The notes beneath the pieces were generated by a model. It did no database searches. It worked only from the letters and a program-made list of their open reading frames with translations, and was not told the origin of the DNA. Made by a program: the position numbers and the translations under genes. A DNA stretch of 64,000 nucleotides from an uncultured Gemmatimonadales bacterium (lineage in GTDB: Bacteria; Gemmatimonadota; Gemmatimonadetes; Longimicrobiales; RSA9): positions 1,344,001 to 1,408,000 of the forward strand of contig OY970192.1 of assembly GCA_963708135.1 (NCBI GenBank). The letters run 5' to 3'. This document shows, piece after piece, positions 1-10,860 of the stretch. How positions within the stretch are numbered: the stretch's first letter is position 1; every line of letters starts with the position of its first letter.

Positions 1-826
1 GCTCCGGGTGCCGGGCACGGCGAAGTCGCTCCTGGAGGCCCAGGCGGAGGGGGCGCACATCGACGTCGTCTACGGCGCGGCGCAGGCGGTGGAGCTGGCG
101 CGCGGGACGAGCGAGGAGGTGGTCTTCTTCGCGACTGGCTTCGAGACGACGGCGGTCGCGACCGCGGCGCTCGTGCTCTCGGACCCTCCGCCGAACTTCT
201 CGGTGCTCTCGGCGCACAAGTACATCCCGCCGGCGATGGAGATCGTGGCGGAAATGCCCGAGAGCCGGGTGGAGGGGTTTCTGGCCGCGGGGCACGCGGC
301 CGCGATCACGGGCTGGGGGATCTTCGAGCGGTTCGTGGAGCGCCACGGCATTCCCGTGGTGGTGGCCGGCTTCGAGCCGCTGGACATCCTGGCCGGGCTT
401 GTCCAGCTGGTGGAGCTCATCCGCGACGGCAGGGCGGAGGTCCGCAACGCCTTCCCGCGCTGCGTGACGAAGCAGGGCAACGTCAACGCGCAGCGGCAGC
501 TCTGGCAGGTGTTCCGTTCGACGGGCGGACAGTGGCGCGGCATCGCGCACGTGCCGAACGGCAACCTTCGCCTGAGGGATGCCTACGCGCAGCTGGACGC
601 GCGTCGCCGCTTCGACATCGACCTGCGCCGGTTCTGGAGCATGGCGCCGCCGGCGCTCACGCAGACGTGCATCTGCGGGGACATCATGGCAGGGACCCGC
701 TCTCCGTCGGACTGCCCGCTGTTCGGCAAGGAGTGCGTGCCGGACGCGCCCGTGGGCGCCTGCATGGTGAGCAGCGAAGGCACGTGCCGCATCTGGCACC
801 AGTACGGGGGGCATCCGAAGCTATGA
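1..826 (+). CDS. hypD: Hydrogenase maturation protein HypD (5' end outside the window)
   Basis: LRVPG at the window edge, GFETT motif, C-terminal CxC...C...C...GACMVSSEGTC. The frame is open to the window start. Confidence 0.95.
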   Translation, partial: LRVPGTAKSLLEAQAEGAHIDVVYGAAQAVELARGTSEEVVFFATGFETTAVATAALVLSDPPPNFSVLSAHKYIPPAMEIVAEMPESRVEGFLAAGHAAAITGWGIFERFVERHGIPVVVAGFEPLDILAGLVQLVELIRDGRAEVRNAFPRCVTKQGNVNAQRQLWQVFRSTGGQWRGIAHVPNGNLRLRDAYAQLDARRRFDIDLRRFWSMAPPALTQTCICGDIMAGTRSPSDCPLFGKECVPDAPVGACMVSSEGTCRIWHQYGGHPKL

Positions 827-1878
827 GCGCGACCGACGCCTGTGTGGTGACGCTGGGCCGCGAGGAGCGCGTGCTGATGAAGCATGGCGCCGGCGGGCGG
901 GCAATGCGGCGGCTGATCGAGAGCACGCTGACGCCGCAGTTCATCGGGCAGCCTGTGGACGGAGTGGGTCTCGCCGCGTTCGACGACGGCGCCGCCCTGC
1001 GGATCGGCGACCAGTGGCTGGTGGTCACCACGGATTCGCACGTGGTGCAGCCGATCTTCTTCCCGGGCGGCGACATCGGGCGCCTCTCGGTCTCCGGCAC
1101 TGTGAACGATCTCGCGATGATGGGGGCGGTCGAGCCGCTCGGCATCACGTGCGCGCTGATCGTCGAGGAGGGCTTCCCGATGGCGGACCTCGAGCGGATC
1201 CACCGCTCCATGGCGGCGGCGTGCGAGGAAGCCGGCGCCGCGATCGTCACCGGCGACACGAAGGTGATGGGGAGGGGCGAGCTGGACGGGGTCGTCCTGA
1301 ACACCACCGGCGTGGCGCTGACGCGGCGCTACATCCCCGACGCCGGCCTGCGGCCGGGGGATCGGATCCTCGTGACGGGCACGATCGGGGACCATGGCAT
1401 CGCGCTGATGGCTGCGCGCAAGGGGTTCGGTCTCGATGCCGACCTCGTTTCCGACGTCGCCCCGATCAACGGGCTGATCCGGGCCGCCCTCGAGGCCGCC
1501 GGCGATGCCGTCACGGCCATGAAGGATCCCACGCGGGGCGGCGTGGCCAGCGCGCTCCACGAGATGGCGCAGAAATCCGGAGTCGGCATCGTGGTGGACG
1601 AGGCGGCGGTGCCCGTGAGCGGCGTCGTGGCGGCGGCCGCCGAGATGCTGGGGCTCGACCCGCTCCAGATCGCGAACGAGGGCAAGGCGGTGCTGGGCGT
1701 TCGCGCCGACGCGGCCGAGCGCGTGCTGACGGCGCTGCGCGCCCATCCCCTCGGCGCCAACGCGGCGATTATCGGCTCGTGCACGACGGAGCACGCCGGT
1801 CAGCTGGTGCTGGACACCGGGTTCGGCCGCCGGCTCCTCTCGGAGCCCGAGGGCGAGCCGCTCCCTCGCATCTGCTGA
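823..1878 (+). CDS. hypE: Hydrogenase maturation carbamoyl dehydratase HypE
   Basis: HGAGG, TTDSHVVQPIFFPGGDIG, GTVNDLAMMGA, KDPTRGG, C-terminal PRIC. ATGA overlap with the hypD stop. Confidence 0.97.
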   Translation: MSATDACVVTLGREERVLMKHGAGGRAMRRLIESTLTPQFIGQPVDGVGLAAFDDGAALRIGDQWLVVTTDSHVVQPIFFPGGDIGRLSVSGTVNDLAMMGAVEPLGITCALIVEEGFPMADLERIHRSMAAACEEAGAAIVTGDTKVMGRGELDGVVLNTTGVALTRRYIPDAGLRPGDRILVTGTIGDHGIALMAARKGFGLDADLVSDVAPINGLIRAALEAAGDAVTAMKDPTRGGVASALHEMAQKSGVGIVVDEAAVPVSGVVAAAAEMLGLDPLQIANEGKAVLGVRADAAERVLTALRAHPLGANAAIIGSCTTEHAGQLVLDTGFGRRLLSEPEGEPLPRIC

Positions 1879-1888
1879 GGACCGCACC

Positions 1889-2656
1889 ATGATCGCGGAC
1901 GGCCGGCGGCGACTGCGCGTGGCGGTGCTCTTCTCGCACCGCGCCCCCGGCCTCGACTACGTGCTCGAGGCGGACCCCGGACGCGGGCCGCTGTACGAGC
2001 TGGTCGCGTGTGTGACGAGCGAGCCGGCGAACGCGGAGCACGGTCGCCTCGCGGAGCAGGGCGTGCCGCTCCTCGCCCACGACATCCACGCCTTCCACCA
2101 GGCGCGCGGCGCGCCTCTCTCCGACCCGGACGTCCGGCGCGCGTACGACGCGGCGATGGCGACGCTCCTCGAGCCGTTCGCGCCCGACCTCGTCGTCCTG
2201 TGTGCGTACCTCTACCTCGTTGGTGAGCCGCTGCTGGGCGCCTTCGAGGGGCGGATCGTGAACATCCACGATGCCGACCTCCGCTTGCGCGATGCCGACG
2301 GCAGGCCTCGGTATCCGGGGCTCCACGCCGTGCGCGATGCCATCCTCGCCGGGGAGAAGGACACGCGGAGCACGGTGCACATGGTGACGGCCGACCTCGA
2401 CGCGGGACCGGTCGTCACGGTGTCGCGCGCGTTCCCGGTGCATCAGCGCTTGGTCCGTGAGGCGTGCGCCACCGGCGCCACGGACGCACTGAAGGCCTAC
2501 GCGTACGCGCACCGCGAGTGGATGATGCGCCTCAGCTGGGGGCCGCTGCTCTCCAGGGTGCTCGAGAAGGCCGCAATGAGCCGCAATCACCGCCTGTTAC
2601 GCGAGCGCCCCCAGGTCGCGCCGCGTGCCCTCCCGCCAGCTCCGGCGGAGCCGTGA
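1889..2656 (+). CDS. PurN-like N10-formyl-THF-dependent formyltransferase (candidate HypX N-terminal half)
   Basis: PDLVVLCAY, VNIHDADL, YPGLHAV and TVHMVTADLDAGPVV retain the Asn/His/Asp catalytic pattern of formyltransferases. Starts 10 bp after hypE. Confidence 0.88.
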   Translation: MIADGRRRLRVAVLFSHRAPGLDYVLEADPGRGPLYELVACVTSEPANAEHGRLAEQGVPLLAHDIHAFHQARGAPLSDPDVRRAYDAAMATLLEPFAPDLVVLCAYLYLVGEPLLGAFEGRIVNIHDADLRLRDADGRPRYPGLHAVRDAILAGEKDTRSTVHMVTADLDAGPVVTVSRAFPVHQRLVREACATGATDALKAYAYAHREWMMRLSWGPLLSRVLEKAAMSRNHRLLRERPQVAPRALPPAPAEP

Positions 2657-2679
2657 GCCGAGCGCGCGAGGGGGCGTCC

Positions 2680-3510
2680 ATGCCGAACATCCGCGTCGAG
2701 CACGACGGCGCCGTCGGCATCCTCACCATCGCCCGCCGGGAGCGCTTCAACTCCCTCGACGTCAGGACCGCGCAGGACTTCCGGCGCGCCGGCATCCAGC
2801 TCGCGCGGGATTCGGCGGTCCGGTGCGTGGTGCTGCGGGGCGAGGGCGGCGTGTTCTGCAGCGGTGCGGACCTGAAGTACATACGGGAGCGCGGCGAGGC
2901 CTCCGACTTCTCCTACCTCCAGCCGGAAGGTGGTGCGCCGGCAAAGGGTTACGGCGAGAGCTTCAAGCAGATTCTCGAGTACATCCACAGCACGATCTCC
3001 GAGATCGAGCGGGCCCCGAAACCCTTTATCGCGGCGGTGGATGGCATCGCCGCGGCCGGGGGGTTCGGCATCGCCATGGCGTGCGATCTCGTCTTTGCCT
3101 CCCGGAGCGCGGCCTTCGAGTGGGCCTACCATAAGACGGGCCTCACGGGCGCGGAGAGCTCGACCTTCTTCCTTCCGCGTCTGGTCGGTCTGCGGCAGGC
3201 GCTCGAGCTGGTCCTCCTCAATCCGCGGCTCGACGCGGAGGAAGCATTGCGCCGCGGCCTGATCACGGGCGTGCTCGAGGACGACGGCTTCCACGAGGCG
3301 GTGCTCGCGGTGGCGCGCCGGCTCGCCGAGGGGCCGACGGAGGCGTACGGCATCGCGAAGTCGCTGATCCACCGGGCGGCGGGCGTGGAGCAGCTCGACT
3401 ATCACCTGGACGAGGAGCTGCGGAGTCTGGCGCGGATCGCGGAGGGGCGTGACTTCGCCGAAGGGCTGGAGGCGTTCTTCGGGAAGCGGAAGCCGGACTT
3501 CGGCGGCTAG
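2680..3510 (+). CDS. Enoyl-CoA hydratase/isomerase (crotonase) fold protein (candidate HypX C-terminal half)
   Basis: FCSGADL oxyanion motif, PKPFIAAVDGIAAAGG, LPRLVG, C-terminal F..KRKP. ATG at 2680 after a GAGGGG RBS. Confidence 0.9.
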   Translation: MPNIRVEHDGAVGILTIARRERFNSLDVRTAQDFRRAGIQLARDSAVRCVVLRGEGGVFCSGADLKYIRERGEASDFSYLQPEGGAPAKGYGESFKQILEYIHSTISEIERAPKPFIAAVDGIAAAGGFGIAMACDLVFASRSAAFEWAYHKTGLTGAESSTFFLPRLVGLRQALELVLLNPRLDAEEALRRGLITGVLEDDGFHEAVLAVARRLAEGPTEAYGIAKSLIHRAAGVEQLDYHLDEELRSLARIAEGRDFAEGLEAFFGKRKPDFGG

Positions 3511-3514
3511 CGGC

Positions 3515-5839
3515 TCACTGCCGCGCCTTCGCATACGCCACCACGGCCTGGCCGAGTGCCAGGCCGCCGTCGTTTGGCGGGACGAGCCGGTGCGTGTAGA
3601 CCTCGAAGCCGGCCGCGCCGAGTCGCTCGCTCAGCCGGTCCGTCAGGAGCGCGCTCTGGAAGCAGCCGCCGCTCAGGCACACCCGCTCGATTCCGGTCGC
3701 ATGCCCCACGAGCGTGCAGAGGCGGGCGGTCGCGGCGGCGACCGTGTTGTGGAACGCGCCGGCGATCGCGGACACCGGCACCCCGGCGCGGTGGTCCTGC
3801 CACAAGGCCCGCAGCGTCGGCGCCGGATCCAGGACGTGCACACCGCCATCGGCGGTCAGGATGTCGAAGGGGTAGACGACATCGCATGCCGCATCCGCCA
3901 CAGCCTCGAGCCGGACCGCCGGCTCTCCCTCGTACGCGGCCCGGGTGCAGACGCCCAGCAGCGCGGAGACGGCGTCGAAGAGGCGCCCGCAGGACGAGGT
4001 CATCGGCGAGTTCAGGCGCAGCTCCAGCTGCCGCCGCAGCACCTGCCGCTCGAGGCCCGCGAAGCGCTCGAAGAACGGCTCCAGCCGCTCCTCCGCCTCC
4101 GGCAGCATCTCCCACAGATACGCGGCGGCCATGCGGTCGGGGCGCCGGATCGCGGCCTCGCCGCCGAGCATCGGCACGGTCCGCAGGTGCGCCGCGCGCC
4201 TGAAGTCGGACCAGTCGGCCACGAGCACCTCGCCGCCCCACACCGTGCCGTCGGTGCCGTAGCCCGTCCCGTCGTACGCCACGCCGATGACGGGACCGAC
4301 CAGCCCGTTCTCCGCCATGCACGCCGCGATGTGCGCGTGGTGGTGCTGAACGGCGACGCGCAGCTCGCCGTCGGACGCGAGGCGCGCCGCGAGCAGGGTT
4401 GACATGTAGTCGGGGTGCATGTCGTGCGCGATGATACGCGGGTGGACGCGGAAGAGGTCGCGGTAGAGCTCGAGCGAGCCCGTGAAGTGCTCCAGGGTCT
4501 CGAGGTTCTCGAGGTCGCCGATGTGCTGGCTGAGAAACGCCTTGGACCCCTTCACGAGGCAGAAGGCGCTCTTCTGCTGGCCTCCGCACGCCAGGATGTC
4601 CGCGGCCGCGGAGAAGGGAAGGTCCACGGGCGCGGGCGCGAGCCCCCGCGAGCGCCGGATCGGCGTCGGCGTCTCGCCGAGCACGCGCACGACGGAGTCG
4701 TCGTAGCGCGCGCGGATGTCGCGGTCGTGGAGCAGGAAGGCGTCCGCCACGTCGGAGAGGCGGTCGAGCGCCTCCGCGTTCCCGATGGCGATCGGCTCCT
4801 CGCTCAGATTGCCGCTCGTCATGACCAGCGGCCCGTCGAAGGCCGCGACCAGCAGATGGTGGAGCGGCGTGTAGGGCAGCATGAGCCCGACCGTATCGAG
4901 GCCGGGCGCGACGGCCGGGGCAAGGCCCGAATCGGCACGGGCACGGACGAGCACGATCGGGCGCTCCCGCGAGCAGAGCACCGCCGCCTCGACGCCGGTG
5001 AGCTCCGCCACCCGTTCCGCCTGCAGCCGGTCGGCGACCATGACGGCCAGCGGCTTGCCGTAGCGGTGCTTCCGCTCCCGCAGCCGGGAGACCGCCGCCT
5101 CGTCCCGGGCATCGCAGGCGAGGTGGAAGCCGCCGAGCCCCTTCAGCGCGACGACGGCGCCCTCGCGCAGCAGCGCGGCGGCACCCGCGATCGGATCGCC
5201 CTCCGGTGCGGGCCGTCCCGGCGCGTGGAGCCAGACCTTCGGCCCGCACGTCGGGCAGGCGACCGGCTGCGCGTGGAAGCGTCGGTCGCGCGGGTCCTCG
5301 TATTCGCGCCGGCACGCCTCGCACAGCGCGAACTCTCGCATGGTCGTGCGCGCCCGGTCGTAGGGCATGCTCTCGATGATCGTGAAGCGAGGCCCGCAGT
5401 GCGTGCAGTTGATGAAGGGATAGAGGTAGCGGCGGTCGGCGGGGTCGAAGAGCTCGCGCAGGCAGTCGTCGCACGTCGCCACGTCGGGCGAGATGTTCTG
5501 CCAGCCGAAGTCCTGCCTGCTGGTGCGGATCTCGAAGGTTTCGAACCCCTCCGGCTCGTGCGGCTCGGCCACCACGGTCTCGATGCGGGCGAGCGGCGGG
5601 GGATCGCGGCGGAGATCCTGGAGGAACGTCTCGAGCGAGGGCGCGGCCCCCTCCACGTGGATCTCGACGAGCTCGGCCGTGTTGCGGACCCAGCCGCTCA
5701 GGGCGTGCTCCTCCGCGAGGCGGAAGACGAACGGGCGGAAGCCGACCCCCTGTACGGTGCCCGTGATCCGGACGCGCAGCCCCGAGAGCGGAGCCGATCC
5801 ACGACGGGTGCCGCCCTCGGCGGCGCGCGTTCGGTGCAC
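3515..5839 (-). CDS. hypF: Carbamoyltransferase HypF
   Basis: Acylphosphatase domain GTVQGVGFRPFV, two zinc-finger CxxC pairs, KGLGGFHLACDA, QHHHAH, PPNDGGLALGQ. Start uncertain (GTG 5839; ORF open to 5896). Confidence 0.96.
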   Translation of the reverse strand: MHRTRAAEGGTRRGSAPLSGLRVRITGTVQGVGFRPFVFRLAEEHALSGWVRNTAELVEIHVEGAAPSLETFLQDLRRDPPPLARIETVVAEPHEPEGFETFEIRTSRQDFGWQNISPDVATCDDCLRELFDPADRRYLYPFINCTHCGPRFTIIESMPYDRARTTMREFALCEACRREYEDPRDRRFHAQPVACPTCGPKVWLHAPGRPAPEGDPIAGAAALLREGAVVALKGLGGFHLACDARDEAAVSRLRERKHRYGKPLAVMVADRLQAERVAELTGVEAAVLCSRERPIVLVRARADSGLAPAVAPGLDTVGLMLPYTPLHHLLVAAFDGPLVMTSGNLSEEPIAIGNAEALDRLSDVADAFLLHDRDIRARYDDSVVRVLGETPTPIRRSRGLAPAPVDLPFSAAADILACGGQQKSAFCLVKGSKAFLSQHIGDLENLETLEHFTGSLELYRDLFRVHPRIIAHDMHPDYMSTLLAARLASDGELRVAVQHHHAHIAACMAENGLVGPVIGVAYDGTGYGTDGTVWGGEVLVADWSDFRRAAHLRTVPMLGGEAAIRRPDRMAAAYLWEMLPEAEERLEPFFERFAGLERQVLRRQLELRLNSPMTSSCGRLFDAVSALLGVCTRAAYEGEPAVRLEAVADAACDVVYPFDILTADGGVHVLDPAPTLRALWQDHRAGVPVSAIAGAFHNTVAAATARLCTLVGHATGIERVCLSGGCFQSALLTDRLSERLGAAGFEVYTHRLVPPNDGGLALGQAVVAYAKARQ

Positions 5840-5844
5840 GGCCC

Positions 5845-6522
5845 TCAGCCCGTCACGACGCGCGTTCTGACCTGCGTACGCAGGAAATCGTACCATTCCT
5901 CCAGCCCCGCGCCGGTGAGCGCGGAGGTGAAGAAGAAGCGCAGGTCCGGGTTGATCTCGCGCGCGAACGCCACGGCCTTGTCCATATCGTAGGGCAGGTA
6001 CGGTAGCAGATCGATCTTGTTGATGATGGCGTAGCGCGCCCGGCGAAACATCGACGGGTACTTGAGCGGCTTGTCCTCGCCCTCCGTGACGGACAGGACG
6101 ACGACCTTCGAGTCCTCCCCCAGATCCCAGCTCGCGGGGCAGACCAGGTTGCCGACGTTCTCGATGAAGAGCAGTCCGGTCTCATCGAGGTCGATGGCCT
6201 CGAGAGCCGTGGCCACCTGGCGCGCGTCGAGATGGCACGCTCCGCCGGTCACGACCGCCTGAACCAGGCGCTCCGTGTGCCGGGCCAGCCGGTCCGCGTC
6301 GTTCTGCGTCTGCACGTCCCCCGTCACCACCGCCGCGCGAAGCTCCGTGCCGACATCGGCCAGCGTCCGCTCCAGCAGCGCGGTTTTCCCGGACCCCGGC
6401 GAGGAAACCAGGTTGAAGGTGGTGACGCCGGCATCGGCAAGGCGACGGCGCACGTCCCGCGCGATCTCGTCGTTCTTCGCCAGGACCCGCTCCCTCACCT
6501 CAATCGTCCGGACCGCCATCAT
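5845..6522 (-). CDS. hypB: Hydrogenase nickel incorporation GTPase HypB
   Basis: SSPGSGKT, CHLDA, ENVGNLVCPA, EGEDKPLKYP, NKIDL. Confidence 0.97.
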   Translation of the reverse strand: MMAVRTIEVRERVLAKNDEIARDVRRRLADAGVTTFNLVSSPGSGKTALLERTLADVGTELRAAVVTGDVQTQNDADRLARHTERLVQAVVTGGACHLDARQVATALEAIDLDETGLLFIENVGNLVCPASWDLGEDSKVVVLSVTEGEDKPLKYPSMFRRARYAIINKIDLLPYLPYDMDKAVAFAREINPDLRFFFTSALTGAGLEEWYDFLRTQVRTRVVTG

Positions 6523-6760
6523 CCACCTCCAGGTAGCTCACGCGCAGCACGTCACCCGGCAGCCGCAGCAGCACCGGGCGTGCCGCCACAAAGGGCGGCT
6601 GCGTCAGCAGCGCGTCGAGACAGAACTCCAGGTTCTCGGCCTCGAGGCCCGCGTCATCACCGACCTCGACCCCGACTTCCACCACCGACGGGAGCGTCGC
6701 GAGGCCGACCTGCTCCTCCACGATGCGGCAGACCTCCATCGCGACGCTCATCTCATGCAT
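6500..6760 (-). CDS. hypA: Nickel metallochaperone HypA, short form without zinc finger
   Basis: N-terminal MHEMS Ni-binding motif, LEFC, C-terminal LRVSYLEVD. Lies between the protease and hypB with overlapping start/stop codons. Confidence 0.85.
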   Translation of the reverse strand: MHEMSVAMEVCRIVEEQVGLATLPSVVEVGVEVGDDAGLEAENLEFCLDALLTQPPFVAARPVLLRLPGDVLRVSYLEVDDGGPDD

Positions 6761-7265
6761 ACGCCCGCTCCCGGAGGCGCCGCAACGCATGGCCCTCCCC
6801 GCGCAGCCGCTCGGCCACGGCCTCGACCAGCGCCGGCAGGCCGCGCTCCAGAACCGGGCTCAGCTCGACCTGCATCTCCAGGACTGCGGGCTGCAGGCCC
6901 ATGGCCGCGGTGCGGGCAGGGAGGGTGCCGCGCCACTCCGCCAGCGCCAGCACCTCGCGCAGGTCGATCTGGTGCGGCGAGAGCTTGTGGCCGAAGTAGC
7001 GTGGGATCTCCTCGCGCTCGAGCACGATCTGCGTGCCCGGCGCGGTCCGCAGGTCGATCGCGTCGAGGAAGAGCAGGCTCTCCGCCTCCTCGATCATCGG
7101 CAGCAGGTTCATCCCCCAGGTCCCGCCATCGAGCACCTCGACCGTGGACGGCAGCTCCCAGTCCTGAACGAGACGGGCCAGGGCGGCAAGCCCCAGCCCG
7201 TCGTCGCCCATGAGCGGGTTGCCCAGGCCGATCACCGTGATCCGGCCCGGGCTTGCCTCAGTCAT
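6753..7265 (-). CDS. Hydrogenase maturation endopeptidase (HyaD/HybD family)
   Basis: GLGNPLMGDDGLG, DGGTWG, LDAID, SPHQ. Confidence 0.95.
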   Translation of the reverse strand: MTEASPGRITVIGLGNPLMGDDGLGLAALARLVQDWELPSTVEVLDGGTWGMNLLPMIEEAESLLFLDAIDLRTAPGTQIVLEREEIPRYFGHKLSPHQIDLREVLALAEWRGTLPARTAAMGLQPAVLEMQVELSPVLERGLPALVEAVAERLRGEGHALRRLRERAYA

Positions 7266-8004
7266 CCGTGTACTCCCGGTCCTCCGGTACGAACCGGCCA
7301 CCGCTGATGATCGAGGAGATCGTGCCCGTGCGTTCCACGACCTCCGCCCGCAGCGCCAGGTAGACGTGGATCGGAATGAAGATCAGGAAGACCCACGTCA
7401 GCACGTGGTGCACGAACCGCACGACCTGCATCCCGCCGAACAGCGGGCCCACCCAGTTGAACAGGTGGAAGAACAGCCCGTTCGGGTTCGACTGGCCGTA
7501 CATGGCGAACCCCGTCACCACCATGATCGCCGCCAGCAGATAGATGCCCGTATACGAGAGCTGCTGCAGCGGGTTGTGCCCGAGGTAGTGCGGCTCATCG
7601 TGATCGATCAGCAGGTAGTAGCGCGCCATCTTGACGAGGTTCTTCCAGTCCCGCCCGCGCACCGGGAAGAGCGCTCTCCAGCGCTCGAACTTGTTCCCCG
7701 CGAACAGCCAATAGAACCGCAGGATGGCTGTGGCCACGAGCACGCCCGCCGCGCTGAAGTGGACCAGCCGCACCCAGCCCATCATGAAGTGCTCGCTCGC
7801 GGCACCGCTCGGGAAGAAGTACGGCCTCCCGATGTAGAAGCCGGTCACCGCGAGCGTCAGGATGCAGCCGACGGCGATCCAGTGCATCGCGCGGATCGGC
7901 CACTGCCACAGGTAGACCCAGCGATACTCCCCGCTCGGCGGAGGGACCGGGTGCGCGATTCCTCGCGCACCCGGCTCGGCGATCGTCTGCTCGAGCTTCG
8001 TCAT
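7258..8004 (-). CDS. hyaC: Ni/Fe-hydrogenase b-type cytochrome subunit
   Basis: VYLWQWPIRAMHW, RLVHF, GHNPLQQLSY, HHVLTW...HVY. Four TM helices with heme His residues. Confidence 0.94.
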   Translation of the reverse strand: MTKLEQTIAEPGARGIAHPVPPPSGEYRWVYLWQWPIRAMHWIAVGCILTLAVTGFYIGRPYFFPSGAASEHFMMGWVRLVHFSAAGVLVATAILRFYWLFAGNKFERWRALFPVRGRDWKNLVKMARYYLLIDHDEPHYLGHNPLQQLSYTGIYLLAAIMVVTGFAMYGQSNPNGLFFHLFNWVGPLFGGMQVVRFVHHVLTWVFLIFIPIHVYLALRAEVVERTGTISSIISGGRFVPEDREYTDD

Positions 8005-9716
8005 AGCACCTTCACCTCCGTGACGACGGCGCCCTGTGCGTCGAGCACGTGCACTCCGCAGGCGATGCACGGGTCGAAGGAGTGGACCGTGCGCAGGATC
8101 TCCAGCGGCTGGTCCGGCTTGACGAGCGGGTGGTTGTCCATGAGCGACAGCTCGTACGGCCCCGCCTGCCCCTTCGGATCCCGCGGCGACGCGTTCCACG
8201 TCGTCGGCACGACGCATTGGTAGCGCGAGATCTTGCCGTCCTTGATCTGCACCCAGTGCCCGAGCGCGCCGCGCGGCGCGTCCAGGTAACCGTAGCCCTG
8301 CGCCGTGGCCGGCCATGAGCTCGGATCCCACTTCGACGCGTCGAACGTCTTGGTGTCCCCGCTCTTGATCCGGTCCACCAGCTCGCCGTACCACTTGTTC
8401 ATGCGCCGCGCGAGCACGACGGTCTCGATGGCACGTGCGGCCGTTCGTCCTAGCGTCGAGAAGAGCGCCTCCGGCCCCACCTGCAGCTTGGTGAGTGCGG
8501 CATTCGTGAGTTCCTTCACCTCGGGATGCCCGACCGCATAGGCGACCAGCATGCGCGCCAGCGGACCAACCTCCATCACCTGCCCGTCGTAGCGCGGCGC
8601 CTTCATCCACGTGTACTTCTTCTCGTCCTGCAGGTAGGTCCACGGTGTGGGCGGGCCCGTGTACTTCGGCGTCGTCTCGCCCTCGTAGGGGTGCAGCCCG
8701 ACGTCTTCGCCGCCGCTGTACTCGTACCACGCGCTCGTGACGTACTCCTTCACCTTGTTCTGGTCGTACTCCACGATCTTGGAGAGGTCGCGGTTCAGGA
8801 TGATGCCCCGCGGCAGGTAGAGCGACTTCGGATCGTTGATGCTGCCCTCGGGGAACTCGCCGACCGACAGGTAGTTCTTGGCACCCCCGCCGATCGATGC
8901 CCACTCCTTGTAGAAGCCGGCGATGGCAACCAGGTCCGGCCAGTAGACCTCCTCGACGAAGCGCTGCGCCTTCTGGATCATGCCCTGTACGTCTGTCAGC
9001 CGTGCCGCGTTGATCGTCGCCGTGTCGTTCAGGTTGATGGCCGAGGCCATCCCGCCCACCAGGAAATTCGGGTGCGGGTTCTTGCCGCCGAAGATGGTAT
9101 GCAGCCGGATTACGTCCTTCTGCCAGTCCAGGGCCTCCAGGTAGTGCGCCGTGGCGAGGAGGTTCACCTCGGGCGGCAGCTTGTAGGCCGGATGACCCCA
9201 GTAGCCGTTGGCGAAGATCCCGAGCTGCCCGCTCGCGACGAACGTCTTCAGCCTGTTCTGCACCTCCGCGAAATAGGTCGCGGAGTTGTTCGGCCACGGC
9301 GAGATCGACTTGGCGATCGCCGACGTCTTGACCGGGTCCGCGGACAGCGCGCTCACCACGTCCACCCAGTCCAGCGCATGCAGGTGGTAGAAGTGGATCA
9401 CATGGTCCTGAATGAACTGCATACCGTGTACGAGGTTGCGGATCAGGTTGGCGTTCGGCGGGATCTCGATGCCGAGCGCATCCTCCACGGCCCGGCACGA
9501 CGCCACCGCGTGCACGACCGTGCACACGCCGCAGATGCGCTGCGTGAACGCCCACGCATCCCGCGGGTCGCGGTCCTGCAGGATCGTCTCGATCCCGCGG
9601 AACTGCGTGGACGACGCCCAGGCGTTCGCGATCTTCCCGTTCTCGGCCTGGGCCTCGATCCGGAGGTGCCCCTCGATGCGGGTGATCGGATCGACGACGA
9701 CCTTAGTTCTCGCCAT
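8001..9716 (-). CDS. hyaB: Group 1 membrane-bound [NiFe]-hydrogenase large subunit
   Basis: DPITRIEGH, L1 QRICGVCTVVH, L2 SFDPCIACGVH followed by a cleavable C-terminal extension. Confidence 0.97.
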   Translation of the reverse strand: MARTKVVVDPITRIEGHLRIEAQAENGKIANAWASSTQFRGIETILQDRDPRDAWAFTQRICGVCTVVHAVASCRAVEDALGIEIPPNANLIRNLVHGMQFIQDHVIHFYHLHALDWVDVVSALSADPVKTSAIAKSISPWPNNSATYFAEVQNRLKTFVASGQLGIFANGYWGHPAYKLPPEVNLLATAHYLEALDWQKDVIRLHTIFGGKNPHPNFLVGGMASAINLNDTATINAARLTDVQGMIQKAQRFVEEVYWPDLVAIAGFYKEWASIGGGAKNYLSVGEFPEGSINDPKSLYLPRGIILNRDLSKIVEYDQNKVKEYVTSAWYEYSGGEDVGLHPYEGETTPKYTGPPTPWTYLQDEKKYTWMKAPRYDGQVMEVGPLARMLVAYAVGHPEVKELTNAALTKLQVGPEALFSTLGRTAARAIETVVLARRMNKWYGELVDRIKSGDTKTFDASKWDPSSWPATAQGYGYLDAPRGALGHWVQIKDGKISRYQCVVPTTWNASPRDPKGQAGPYELSLMDNHPLVKPDQPLEILRTVHSFDPCIACGVHVLDAQGAVVTEVKVL

Positions 9717-10860
9717 GCGGCACCTCCTCGCCCTTCGGAGCCTGATTCAGTATCGGAAGCTCGCCACGCCGCTTCTCGCGCGTCCGCTGGATCCCCGTCG
9801 CCGCCGCGTGCGCGGCTACGCCCGCCGTCGCGCCGATCGCCAGAGCGGCGCCCAGCGTGTCCGCGAAGCTCTCCACGCCGAGTCCCGCCACGTCCGGGAG
9901 GCGCCCGTAGAACGGCGTCATCGTGTCCCAGAAGTGCGGCTCGGTGCAGCCGATGCAGGGATGCCCCGCGCCGATCGGCCAGCTCGTGCGCGTGTTCCAC
10001 TGGAAGATCGGGCAGGGCGAGAACGTCGCCGGCCCCTTGCAGCCCACCTTGTACAGGCACCAGCCCTTGCGCGCTGCGTCATCGTCGAACGCCTCGACGT
10101 ACTGCCCGGCGTCGAAGTTGGCCCGCCGCGGGCACTGGTCGTGGATCCGCGCCCCGTACGCGAAGAGCGGCCGCCCCTGGCCATCCAGCTCCGGCAGCCG
10201 GTTGAAGGTGAGGAAGTGCACGACCGTCGCCGTCACGACATCCGCGATCGGTGGACAGCCCGCAATGTTTACCACCGGCTTGTCCTTGACGATGTCCTGC
10301 ACGCCCACGGCGCCTGTCGGATTCGGCCGGGCCGCCTGGACGCTGCCCCAGTGCGCGCACGCGCCCACCGCCACCACCGCCGCGGCTCCCGCCGCCGCCT
10401 CCTTGAGCAGGTCCTCGGCCGTGCGCCCCCCGATCGTCGTGTAGATCCCGTTCTCCTTCGTCGGGATCGACCCCGTCACGATCAGGATGTAGCCCCCCTT
10501 GTTCGCCTCCATCGACTTCATCATCGCGCCGTCCGCCTGCAGCCCGGCCGCCGCCATGATCGTCTCCTGGTAGTCCAGCGAAATGACGTCCAGCACCAGG
10601 TCACCGATCGTCGGCGCATCCGACCGCAGCACGCTCTCCGTGCACCCGGTGCACTCCTGCAGGGACAGCCAGATGACGGTCGGGCGCTTCACCGCGGCCA
10701 GCGCACGCGCCATCTTCGGCGTGGCCAGCTCGCTCAGCCCGAGGATCACCGCGAACTCCCCGCAGAACGCGAGAAAGTCCCGTCGGCTTACGCCCCGCTT
10801 CTTGAGGTAGGCGCCCAGGGTTTCCCCTTCGGCCCACGGCTCGGGGTTCGGGAAGTACAT
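9703..10860 (-). CDS. hyaA: Group 1 [NiFe]-hydrogenase small subunit with Tat signal and C-terminal membrane anchor
   Basis: SRRDFL Tat motif, ECTGCTES, GCPP, HDQCPRR, CLYKVGCKGP, HPCIGC, hydrophobic C-terminal helix. Confidence 0.97.
   Translation of the reverse strand: MYFPNPEPWAEGETLGAYLKKRGVSRRDFLAFCGEFAVILGLSELATPKMARALAAVKRPTVIWLSLQECTGCTESVLRSDAPTIGDLVLDVISLDYQETIMAAAGLQADGAMMKSMEANKGGYILIVTGSIPTKENGIYTTIGGRTAEDLLKEAAAGAAAVVAVGACAHWGSVQAARPNPTGAVGVQDIVKDKPVVNIAGCPPIADVVTATVVHFLTFNRLPELDGQGRPLFAYGARIHDQCPRRANFDAGQYVEAFDDDAARKGWCLYKVGCKGPATFSPCPIFQWNTRTSWPIGAGHPCIGCTEPHFWDTMTPFYGRLPDVAGLGVESFADTLGAALAIGATAGVAAHAAATGIQRTREKRRGELPILNQAPKGEEVPHGEN

Follow-up and report, generated by a model that had tools for sequence, protein, structure and literature searches.

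In the cited sections of a 2025 review (PMC12134894), synthesis of the CO ligand of [NiFe] hydrogenases is described as demonstrated for HypX and for no other enzyme, and where organisms that lack HypX obtain their CO is presented as a still open question. According to the cited sections of this review and of PMC6802093, HypX produces CO via formyl-CoA from N10-formyl-tetrahydrofolate (N10-formyl-THF), for the iron bound to HypC and HypD. The cited part of PMC6802093 further describes the N-terminal domain (HypX-N) as similar to FDH, FMT and ArnA, with Rossmann and OB subdomains and the residues His74, Asp80 and Asp109, and the C-terminal domain (HypX-C) as a crotonase in which Tyr416 and Glu426 correspond to Tyr439 and Glu449 of the Cupriavidus necator protein; C. 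necator mutants in Y439 or E449 show a HypX-minus phenotype. Here, we analyze a stretch of 64,000 nucleotides from an uncultured Gemmatimonadales bacterium (contig OY970192.1, positions 1,344,001 to 1,408,000; hereafter the window), in which hypD and hypE are followed by two separate genes for a formyltransferase (FT) and a crotonase (ECH). We lean, with some reserve, towards the interpretation that FT and ECH together stand in for HypX as its non-orthologous analogue and produce CO by way of formyl-CoA.

A two-gene or stand-alone form of HypX was not found in a full-text literature search, the reach of which excluded subscription papers, including the HypX studies of the Lenz group. An older text that mentions HypX together with crotonases uses the crotonases only as an outgroup (PMC2974642, in the part cited). 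Besides HypX, the closest described systems are PurN, the PaaG-type crotonases and the hydrolase domain of 10-formyl-THF dehydrogenase. The last of these is an FMT-type domain with an OB subdomain, which we liken to FT by description; it moves the formyl group of N10-formyl-THF to the thiol of 4'-phosphopantetheine by means of a His and an Asp, and thus provides a precedent (PMC6802093, in the part cited). An earlier note, made from the letters of the window, had proposed that the two genes form a two-component system similar to HypX.

The formyltransferase and crotonase genes behind hypE

The two genes and their conserved motifs are located in the window as follows.

1889..2656, + strand: FT, a hyp-linked formyltransferase of PurN type, 255 amino acids (PF00551 match; PurN fold in the AlphaFold 2 model)
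1934..1951, + strand: FT residues S16-H-R-A-P-G21, in place of the PurN G-x-G-[ST]-N loop (R18, A19 and G21 invariant in 25/25 sequences)
2261..2278, + strand: FT residues N125-I-H127-D-A-D130 (NIHDADL), the catalytic Asn and His and a family-specific Asp
2399..2401, + strand: FT residue D171, the catalytic Asp, aligned to the Asp of 'D-x-G-P' in PurN domains and HypX-N
2657..2679, + strand: spacer of 23 bp between FT and ECH, with a ribosome-binding-like (Shine-Dalgarno-like) site, GAGGGGG
2680..3510, + strand: ECH, a hyp-linked crotonase of 276 amino acids and candidate formyl-CoA decarbonylase (PF00378; hidden Markov model of its own family)
2854..2874, + strand: ECH residues F59-C-S-G-A-D-L65, first glycine-rich crotonase motif (F59, S61, G62, A63, D64 and L65 in at least 97% of 72 sequences)
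3043..3063, + strand: ECH residues G122-I-A-A-A-G-G128, second glycine-rich crotonase motif (G122, A124-A126, G127 and G128 in at least 97% of 72 sequences)
3118..3129, + strand: ECH residues E147-W-A-Y150, with Y150 aligned to HypX Y439 (invariant in 72/72 sequences)
3148..3159, + strand: ECH residues G157-A-E159-S160, with E159 aligned to HypX E449 and diagnostic of the family (invariant in 72/72 sequences)

We take the G-x-G-[ST]-N loop of PurN to bind the phosphate of glycinamide ribonucleotide (GAR). The first glycine-rich motif of ECH presumably represents the oxyanion hole and CoA thioester site, and the second the oxyanion hole. FT starts 10 bp behind the stop codon of hypE, with a GAGGA sequence located 7 nt upstream of its ATG, and the coordinates of the open reading frames (ORFs) agree with the 10 and 23 bp given for the pair in the earlier note. 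The same note described the pair as ending head-on against hypF; the genes are indeed convergent, with the stop codons of ECH and hypF only 4 bp apart, but this is a tail-to-tail rather than a head-on arrangement.

FT matched the Pfam family PF00551 with 68.4 bits (cut-off 26.1) and the NCBIfam model of PurN (TIGR00639) with 76.1 bits, below the cut-off of 150.1, and no equivalog model was reached. The Asn/His pair and the Asp predicted for a PurN-like formyltransferase were found exactly where they had been placed (2261-2269 and 2399-2401), with the codon of N125 at 2261-2263, that of H127 at 2267-2269 and that of D171 at 2399-2401. PurN (PDB entries 3auf, 3p9x and 1cde) has the same fold and the same conserved Asn, His and Asp, and PurN enzymes are the best sequence matches of FT in the PDB (E-values down to 8.9e-16); HypX is not among these matches. 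The AlphaFold 2 model of FT (mean predicted local distance difference test score, pLDDT, 91.1) displays one PurN-type domain and a long helix, residues 198-230. The top matches of this model in Foldseek were all PurN (E-values from 6.6e-15 down; query-relative TM-score up to 0.64), with ArnA and FMT lower in the search at TM-scores of 0.43-0.47.

Despite this similarity, FT differs from PurN in several respects. The SGxG[ST]N loop of PurN domains is S-x-R-A-P-G in the FT family, and N-[VT]-H-P-[AS]-L-L in PurN is replaced by NIHDADL, after which FT carries an insert of 8 residues. FT also has an extra conserved helix, YAYA[HQ]REWMM, and is found in the context of hyp genes rather than of purine synthesis. 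The NIHDADL stretch and the C-terminal helix, both singled out as distinctive from the window alone, proved to be family-wide in 25 FT relatives; H127, D130, D171, E210 and W211 are invariant in all 25 sequences, and N125 is kept in at least 90%. Only the description of FT as short did not hold, since its 255 amino acids exceed the length of the solved PurN chains (184-229 amino acids) and are few only beside the HypX N-domain of about 270 amino acids. Because the G-x-G-[ST]-N loop has been lost while the Asn, His and Asp have been kept, FT is likely to have a new acceptor. Thus, the donor side of FT looks intact and the acceptor side new, as a transferase onto CoA or another thiol would need.

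ECH was confirmed as a protein of the crotonase fold by its match to PF00378 (ECH_1; 153 bits, cut-off 27), by both glycine-rich motifs and by its model, an ordinary crotonase in Foldseek (pLDDT 85.4). The scores against the NCBIfam models of PaaG (TIGR02280; 161.9 bits, cut-off 345.15) and of the alternative oxepin-CoA hydrolase (171.9 bits, cut-off 300) were below the cut-offs, and no equivalog was reached. The closest sequence relatives are PaaG and the crotonases with a 'Tyr...P-D-G-G' pattern (TIGR02280, NF046063; 4fzw_C and 6sla), which have the Tyr and the glycine-rich oxyanion-hole motifs in common with ECH; the E-value against 4fzw_C was 2.5e-36, and the identity to crotonase representatives 35-45%. 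However, the catalytic Asp (D136) in P-D-[CG]-G-G of these enzymes corresponds to Ala158 in ECH, followed by the Glu of G-A-E-S, and ECH is found without the paa gene context. A hidden Markov model of the ECH family gave 506 bits for ECH as compared to at most 150 bits for the 9 paralogues in the same genome, none of which has an equivalent of either Y150 or E159. Ten residues are invariant in 72 sequences of the ECH family, namely E147, W148, A149, Y150, G157, A158, E159, S160, T162 and F163.

In an all-against-all search with ECH, 52,644 proteins passed E<=1e-3, and 506 of them also passed E<=1e-30. The occurrence of the Tyr and the Glu was surveyed in 116 full-length representatives among the best 150 ECH matches. 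Both residues were found together in 8 of the 116, all of them family-like. Based on this survey, the change from P-D-G-G to G-A-E-S is the mark of the ECH family, in which only the Glu is diagnostic.

The databases bear out the expectation that annotation pipelines would mislabel the genes, in that they apply the names PurN and PaaG-type isomerase. The many relatives of FT (50-69% identity) are labelled PurN at JGI and 'formyltransferase family protein' or 'hypothetical protein' at NCBI. The NCBI name 'enoyl-CoA hydratase-related protein' is given to some fused HypX proteins and to some stand-alone ECH members alike.

Comparison with fused HypX

The pair consists of the same two enzyme classes as HypX, a formyltransferase followed by a crotonase, and occupies the same slot, with fused hypX located directly after hypE on C. 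necator pHG1, on a Rhizobium leguminosarum plasmid and in Sulfurimonas. BLASTP aligned ECH to C. necator HypX over 228 residues with 28% identity and an E-value of 5e-10, placing Y150 on Y439 and E159 on E449. The Tyr and the Glu are invariant in 6/6 HypX sequences, and their spacing of +9 in ECH is also that of four of these six. The ECH model could be aligned over its full length to the C-terminal part of HypX from Aquifex aeolicus (PDB 6J0P) with a Z-score of about 30. In a VIA-align comparison with 1000 crotonase chains, Aquifex HypX ranked 4-8 (Z 29.9-30.1, top Z 32.8), with residues 286-544 aligned at a root-mean-square deviation of 2.5 Å over 251 residues. The alignments of the PaaG chains covered only 204-216 residues, owing to different C-terminal helices; in the ECH model the C-terminal helices fold back as in HypX and in enoyl-CoA isomerase (ECI), unlike in the PaaG chains, although an AlphaFold 2 monomer model may be biased towards such a conformation.

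HypX is one polypeptide, whereas the pair is encoded by two ORFs, with a stop codon and a 23-bp spacer in between. HypX-N contains an OB subdomain and has about 270 amino acids, whereas FT is of PurN type with the long C-terminal helix instead. By sequence position, H127 and D171 of FT correspond to the His and the catalytic Asp of HypX-N; the Asn before the His is missing in HypX and kept in FT, and the second Asp of HypX-N is located at His+6 as compared to His+3 for the invariant D130 of FT. The BLASTP match of FT to HypX was limited to 41 residues (E-value 0.011). Also in contrast to HypX, ECH often occurs without any transferase. In the phylogeny, which had been suggested as a check, the FT family formed one clade (support of 99 in the Shimodaira-Hasegawa-like approximate likelihood ratio test, SH-aLRT) beside the PurN domains, with HypX-N far away, separated from FT by branches of length 3.25 and 1.27.

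No fusion of FT and ECH was detected among 109 longer FT relatives or among 13 long ECH representatives, and the latter mostly resemble merged or frameshifted gene calls. One record, P0122 (619 amino acids, from a 413,559-bp ENA contig), combines the HypE domains AIRS and AIRS_C (approximately residues 49-301) with an FT-family domain (354-523) that shares 51% identity with FT; the record comprises one sequence and may reflect a real fusion or a lost stop codon. Canonical hypX is annotated as two features in Mesorhizobium huakuii (NZ_CP050299.1) and Sulfurovum mangrovi (NZ_CP087125.1), namely a formyltransferase family protein and an enoyl-CoA hydratase-related or hypothetical protein, with 3 BLAST pieces in Sulfurovum. 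These records may represent true fissions or frameshifts of real hypX genes.

Synteny, distribution and genome setting

Related loci were collected by an FT-profile scan of one genome per species, in which 121 relatives were confirmed; the 80 best loci form the set described here. The gene order was hypE-FT-ECH in 71 loci, hypD-FT-ECH-hypE in 4 and FT-ECH-hypE at a contig end in 1; in another 2 the contig stopped directly after FT, and ECH was missing in the remaining 2. ECH was thus located directly after FT in 76/80 loci, or in 76 of the 78 where the contig leaves room. Hyp or hydrogenase genes were present at 79/80 loci, which shows, for the neighbourhood survey that the earlier note had suggested, that the relatives are not mostly unlinked from hyp genes. 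The loci were from Acidobacteriota (41), Gemmatimonadota (33), Nitrospirota (1), Actinomycetota (1), a haloarchaeal metagenome-assembled genome (MAG; 1) and 3 sources with an unnamed phylum, and the synteny with hyp genes spans at least four phyla. Since the loci were found through FT, this collection cannot tell how often ECH occurs without FT. The two loci without ECH were L027 (positions 7624-10074), an acidobacterial MAG with the order hypF-hypC-FT followed by a 421-residue ORF without a Pfam match and with none of hypD, hypE and ECH within 8 kb downstream, and L060, an archaeal MAG contig with FT and without hyp genes.

Both family profiles were also run on two genome samples, one from the window's own phylum (201 genomes) and one from the phylum of an acidobacterial carrier (251 genomes), each of which includes its seed genome, picked for having the pair. 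In the own-phylum sample, 87 genomes had a hypE over the cut-off, 9 had ECH and 2 had FT; both genes were present in 2 genomes, ECH only in 7 and FT only in 0. The acidobacterial sample contained 9 genomes with ECH and 9 with FT (8 with both, 1 with ECH only and 1 with FT only). For the 452 genomes taken together, these numbers are 18 with ECH, 11 with FT, 10 with both, 8 with ECH only and 1 with FT only. Four weak matches of the ECH profile with 207-216 bits (G214, G389, G399 and G409) probably represent ordinary crotonases and do not enter the ECH counts; the own-phylum tallies include G057, G097, G157 and G182, with neither FT nor ECH in any of these four. A search of the own-phylum sample with C. 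necator HypX as the query gave hits in 0/201 genomes, which, as there was no positive control, means that HypX was not found with this query.

All 7 own-phylum genomes with ECH only are at least 97% complete and have no FT anywhere. Their gene order is hypD-hypE-ECH, or hypE-ECH where the fetched locus starts inside hypE, with a gap between hypE and ECH of about 20 bp in five genomes and of 162 and 549 bp in the other two. In the ECH tree, the 7 FT-less sequences require 6 state changes, at least 2 of which are forced by starred branches, and their nearest neighbours are FT-linked sequences. Among the acidobacterial-phylum genomes with both genes, FT and ECH are adjacent in 7/8; in the exception, G259, FT is on C45:53892-54632 and ECH on C86:134967-135791, the sole unlinked pair seen. 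The ECH family also had more members in word-index searches: of 8000 scored candidates, 4486 clusters reached E<=1e-60 for ECH, as compared to 480 of 6142 at E<=1e-3 for FT. Thus, ECH looks like the constant part and FT like a frequent add-on, and FT appears dispensable, as numerous close relatives have retained ECH behind hypE in its absence. In the own-phylum sample, the hypE genes adjacent to ECH scored 368-390 bits against TIGR02124 and the remaining full-length hypE genes 392-458 bits, which suggests that the module travels with one hyp subtype.

The other genes of the locus, all but hypC inside the window, are the following.

2..826, + strand: hypD, with the 5' end cut by the start of the window (70-81% identity to HypD of related loci)
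C1:1343377-1343682 in genome coordinates: hypC, which precedes hypD outside the window
823..1878, + strand: hypE, with AIRS and AIRS_C domains (TIGR02124, 386 bits, cut-off 251.6)
3515..5896, - strand: hypF, with five HypF domains, convergent with ECH
5845..6522, - strand: hypB
6500..6790, - strand: hypA
6753..7301, - strand: hydrogenase maturation endopeptidase
7258..8001, - strand: b-type cytochrome subunit of the hydrogenase (PF01292, 116.9 bits)
8001..9716, - strand: [NiFe] hydrogenase large subunit
9703..10860, - strand: [NiFe] hydrogenase small subunit, with a Tat-type leader and the motif E-C-T-G-C-T-E-S (PF01058, PF14720)

The start of hypE overlaps the end of hypD by 4 nt. A signal scan of window positions 1-6000 detected no sigma-70-like promoters and one terminator-like site, located inside ECH, a count at chance level. 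The genome is a single contig of 5.45 Mb. It contains only 3 genes with the PF00551 domain (Formyl_trans_N), an ordinary PurN, Fmt and FT, and 9 crotonases besides ECH; apart from FT beside ECH, none of the PF00551 genes adjoins a crotonase, and by this comparison of PF00551 genes with their crotonase neighbours fused HypX was not found in the genome. The presence of 3 full-length genes for haem-copper oxidase subunit I points to a potential for aerobic respiration.

A second large subunit, with 26% identity and accompanied by a separate set of hypC, hypD and hypE, is located near 3.02 Mb (C1:3013292-3023338), and a third gene similar to large subunits near 3.67 Mb (C1:3668122-3671043), both without FT and ECH. 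Searches with the window proteins detected full-length hypF, hypB and hypA in the window only; outside it, they gave a partial HypF match of 121 residues near 4.15 Mb. The single-copy gene for formate-tetrahydrofolate ligase, the maker of N10-formyl-THF, is located beside the head of the hypCDE-FT-ECH operon and divergent from hypC (C1:1341429-1343093, - strand; PF01268, 689.7 bits). Since the ligase was found in 0/80 related loci, this adjacency may be due to chance and is mentioned as an aside.

Proposed mechanism and competing explanations

From the gene order, family membership, motifs, synteny and distribution observed, we infer substrates, products and CO delivery as follows. FT would produce formyl-CoA by formylating the CoA thiol with N10-formyl-THF as the donor, using the PurN-type residues Asn125, His127 and Asp171 plus the family-specific Asp130. 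ECH would bind this thioester through an oxyanion hole of the standard crotonase kind, with Tyr150 and Glu159 as the putative base system for the release of CO and CoA. The CO would then be passed to the iron held on HypC-HypD, for which HypE and HypF would supply the cyanides. ECH would be the core enzyme and FT a dedicated yet dispensable supplier of formyl-CoA. A feeder-consumer pair of this kind fits best because, of the 11 FT-bearing genomes in the two phylum samples, only 1 lacks ECH.

Several observations weigh against this interpretation. ECH is far nearer to PaaG-like crotonases than to HypX, as seen from the E-values of 2.5e-36 for the PaaG structure and 5e-10 for HypX. The invariant residues of the active site also differ in part, with N-P-H in HypX where ECH has E147-W148. 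The Tyr is present in 88/116 of the neighbouring crotonases, which suggests that it was inherited from the PaaG-like neighbourhood; in most of the 88, P-D-G-G comes after it, and the Asp, as in PaaG, precedes the position of the ECH Glu by one residue. A descent of ECH and HypX-C from a common ancestor of their own was considered, as the first tree grouped the two with an SH-aLRT support of 97, and of 93.7 after removal of the motif columns and under a site-heterogeneous model. However, the HypX-C profile showed no preference for the ECH family (score 162.7) over other representatives (193.3) and paralogues (158.5), and a tree with HypX-C joined to ordinary paralogues had a log-likelihood higher by 28.45 units, with a p-AU of 0.844 in the approximately unbiased (AU) test. 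On these grounds a common descent was set aside; the special kinship is not upheld, and the shared residues may rather reflect convergence.

The distribution and the hydrogenase itself add to these points. ECH was found without FT in 8/18 ECH-bearing genomes of the two samples; in such carriers formyl-CoA would have to come from another source, presumably another enzyme, or the substrate of ECH would be something other than formyl-CoA. The closest plasmid-borne HypE (58% identity; L085, Natrarchaeobaculum sulfurireducens pAArc1-02) belongs to a hyp cluster without FT and ECH, in the order small subunit, large subunit, cytochrome b, protease, hypC, hypD, hypE, hypA, hypB, hypF. Finally, the hydrogenase in the window is not obviously O2-tolerant, since we take the E-C-T-G-C-T-E-S (C-T-G-C) sequence of its small subunit to be the standard proximal-cluster motif and not the C-x-C-C six-cysteine form of the O2-tolerant group 1d. 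The two-component system proposed in the earlier note is supported by the hyp linkage, the hypX slot and the Tyr/Glu pair, whereas an obligate pair is doubtful, as 7 of the 9 own-phylum genomes with ECH lack FT.

A related claim, put forward tentatively but as a serious possibility, is that ECH belongs to a self-sufficient family of formyl-CoA decarbonylases that arose independently of HypX and supplies the CO ligand of [NiFe] hydrogenases, with FT as an optional feeder that has been repeatedly gained and lost.

It is unlikely, in our view, that ECH alone is the maturation enzyme, releasing CO or another hyp product from an acyl-CoA not necessarily made by FT, while FT serves another role in the hyp system, such as the transfer of formyl to a protein thiol of the HypE C-terminal cysteine, HypC or HypD. 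This would account for the 7/9 own-phylum genomes in which ECH follows hypE in the absence of FT, for the scattered tree positions of the FT-less ECHs between FT-linked sequences (7 sequences, 6 changes of state) and for the much larger size of the ECH family (4486 versus 480 clusters, at different E-value cut-offs), and the HypE-FT fusion P0122 would suit such a role of FT. However, FT adjoins ECH in 76/78 loci with room and is without ECH in only one FT-bearing genome, and the fusion was seen in one record only, which comprises one sequence.

It is rather improbable that the pair is dedicated to the hyp system but performs a task other than CO ligand synthesis, for example another CoA or one-carbon step in assembly or protection. 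The synteny indicates a link to hyp and not a chemistry, ECH is PaaG-like overall, its Tyr is ancestral to its crotonase neighbourhood, and the module is tied to one hydrogenase and one hypE subtype (368-390 versus 392-458 bits), all of which is consistent with another task. On the other hand, the module occupies the hypX slot, comprises the two enzyme classes of HypX and has a Glu at the position of HypX E449, and the cited sections of PMC12134894 name no further one-carbon or CoA step in the assembly of the [NiFe] cofactor.

That canonical hypX was simply split into its two domains is very improbable and already contradicted by the present evidence: the domain classes, their order, the position after hypE and the two-piece annotations on the Mesorhizobium huakuii and Sulfurovum mangrovi plasmids would agree with it, but FT has a BLASTP match to HypX with an E-value of 0.011 over 41 residues, a one-domain PurN fold with a long helix replacing the OB subdomain and a tree position distant from HypX-N, and ECH has no special kinship to HypX-C. 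These same results agree with the suggestion, made from the window alone, of an independently assembled analogue. Equally far-fetched is the explanation that ordinary purine and phenylacetate-type genes sit in the operon by chance, as the pipeline names would have it, given scores far below the cut-offs for both PurN and PaaG, the replacement of both the PurN loop and the PaaG Asp, a true PurN elsewhere in the genome and hyp synteny in at least four phyla.

The module amounts to two clonable genes that can be tested in lineages where fused HypX was not found. If the preferred interpretation of FT and ECH as a HypX analogue is true, the pair would represent a second, non-orthologous route to the CO ligand, the key crotonase residue would be the Glu in G-A-E-S, thousands of database labels (PurN, epoxyphenylacetyl-CoA isomerase) would be corrected, and a small part would be available for the production of hydrogenases in air. 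If ECH is self-sufficient, it would provide a second aerobic pathway to the CO ligand, in which the Tyr/Glu solution of HypX has been reached from a PaaG-like ancestor, and the carriers would be aerobic soil phyla, the Acidobacteriota and Gemmatimonadota among others.

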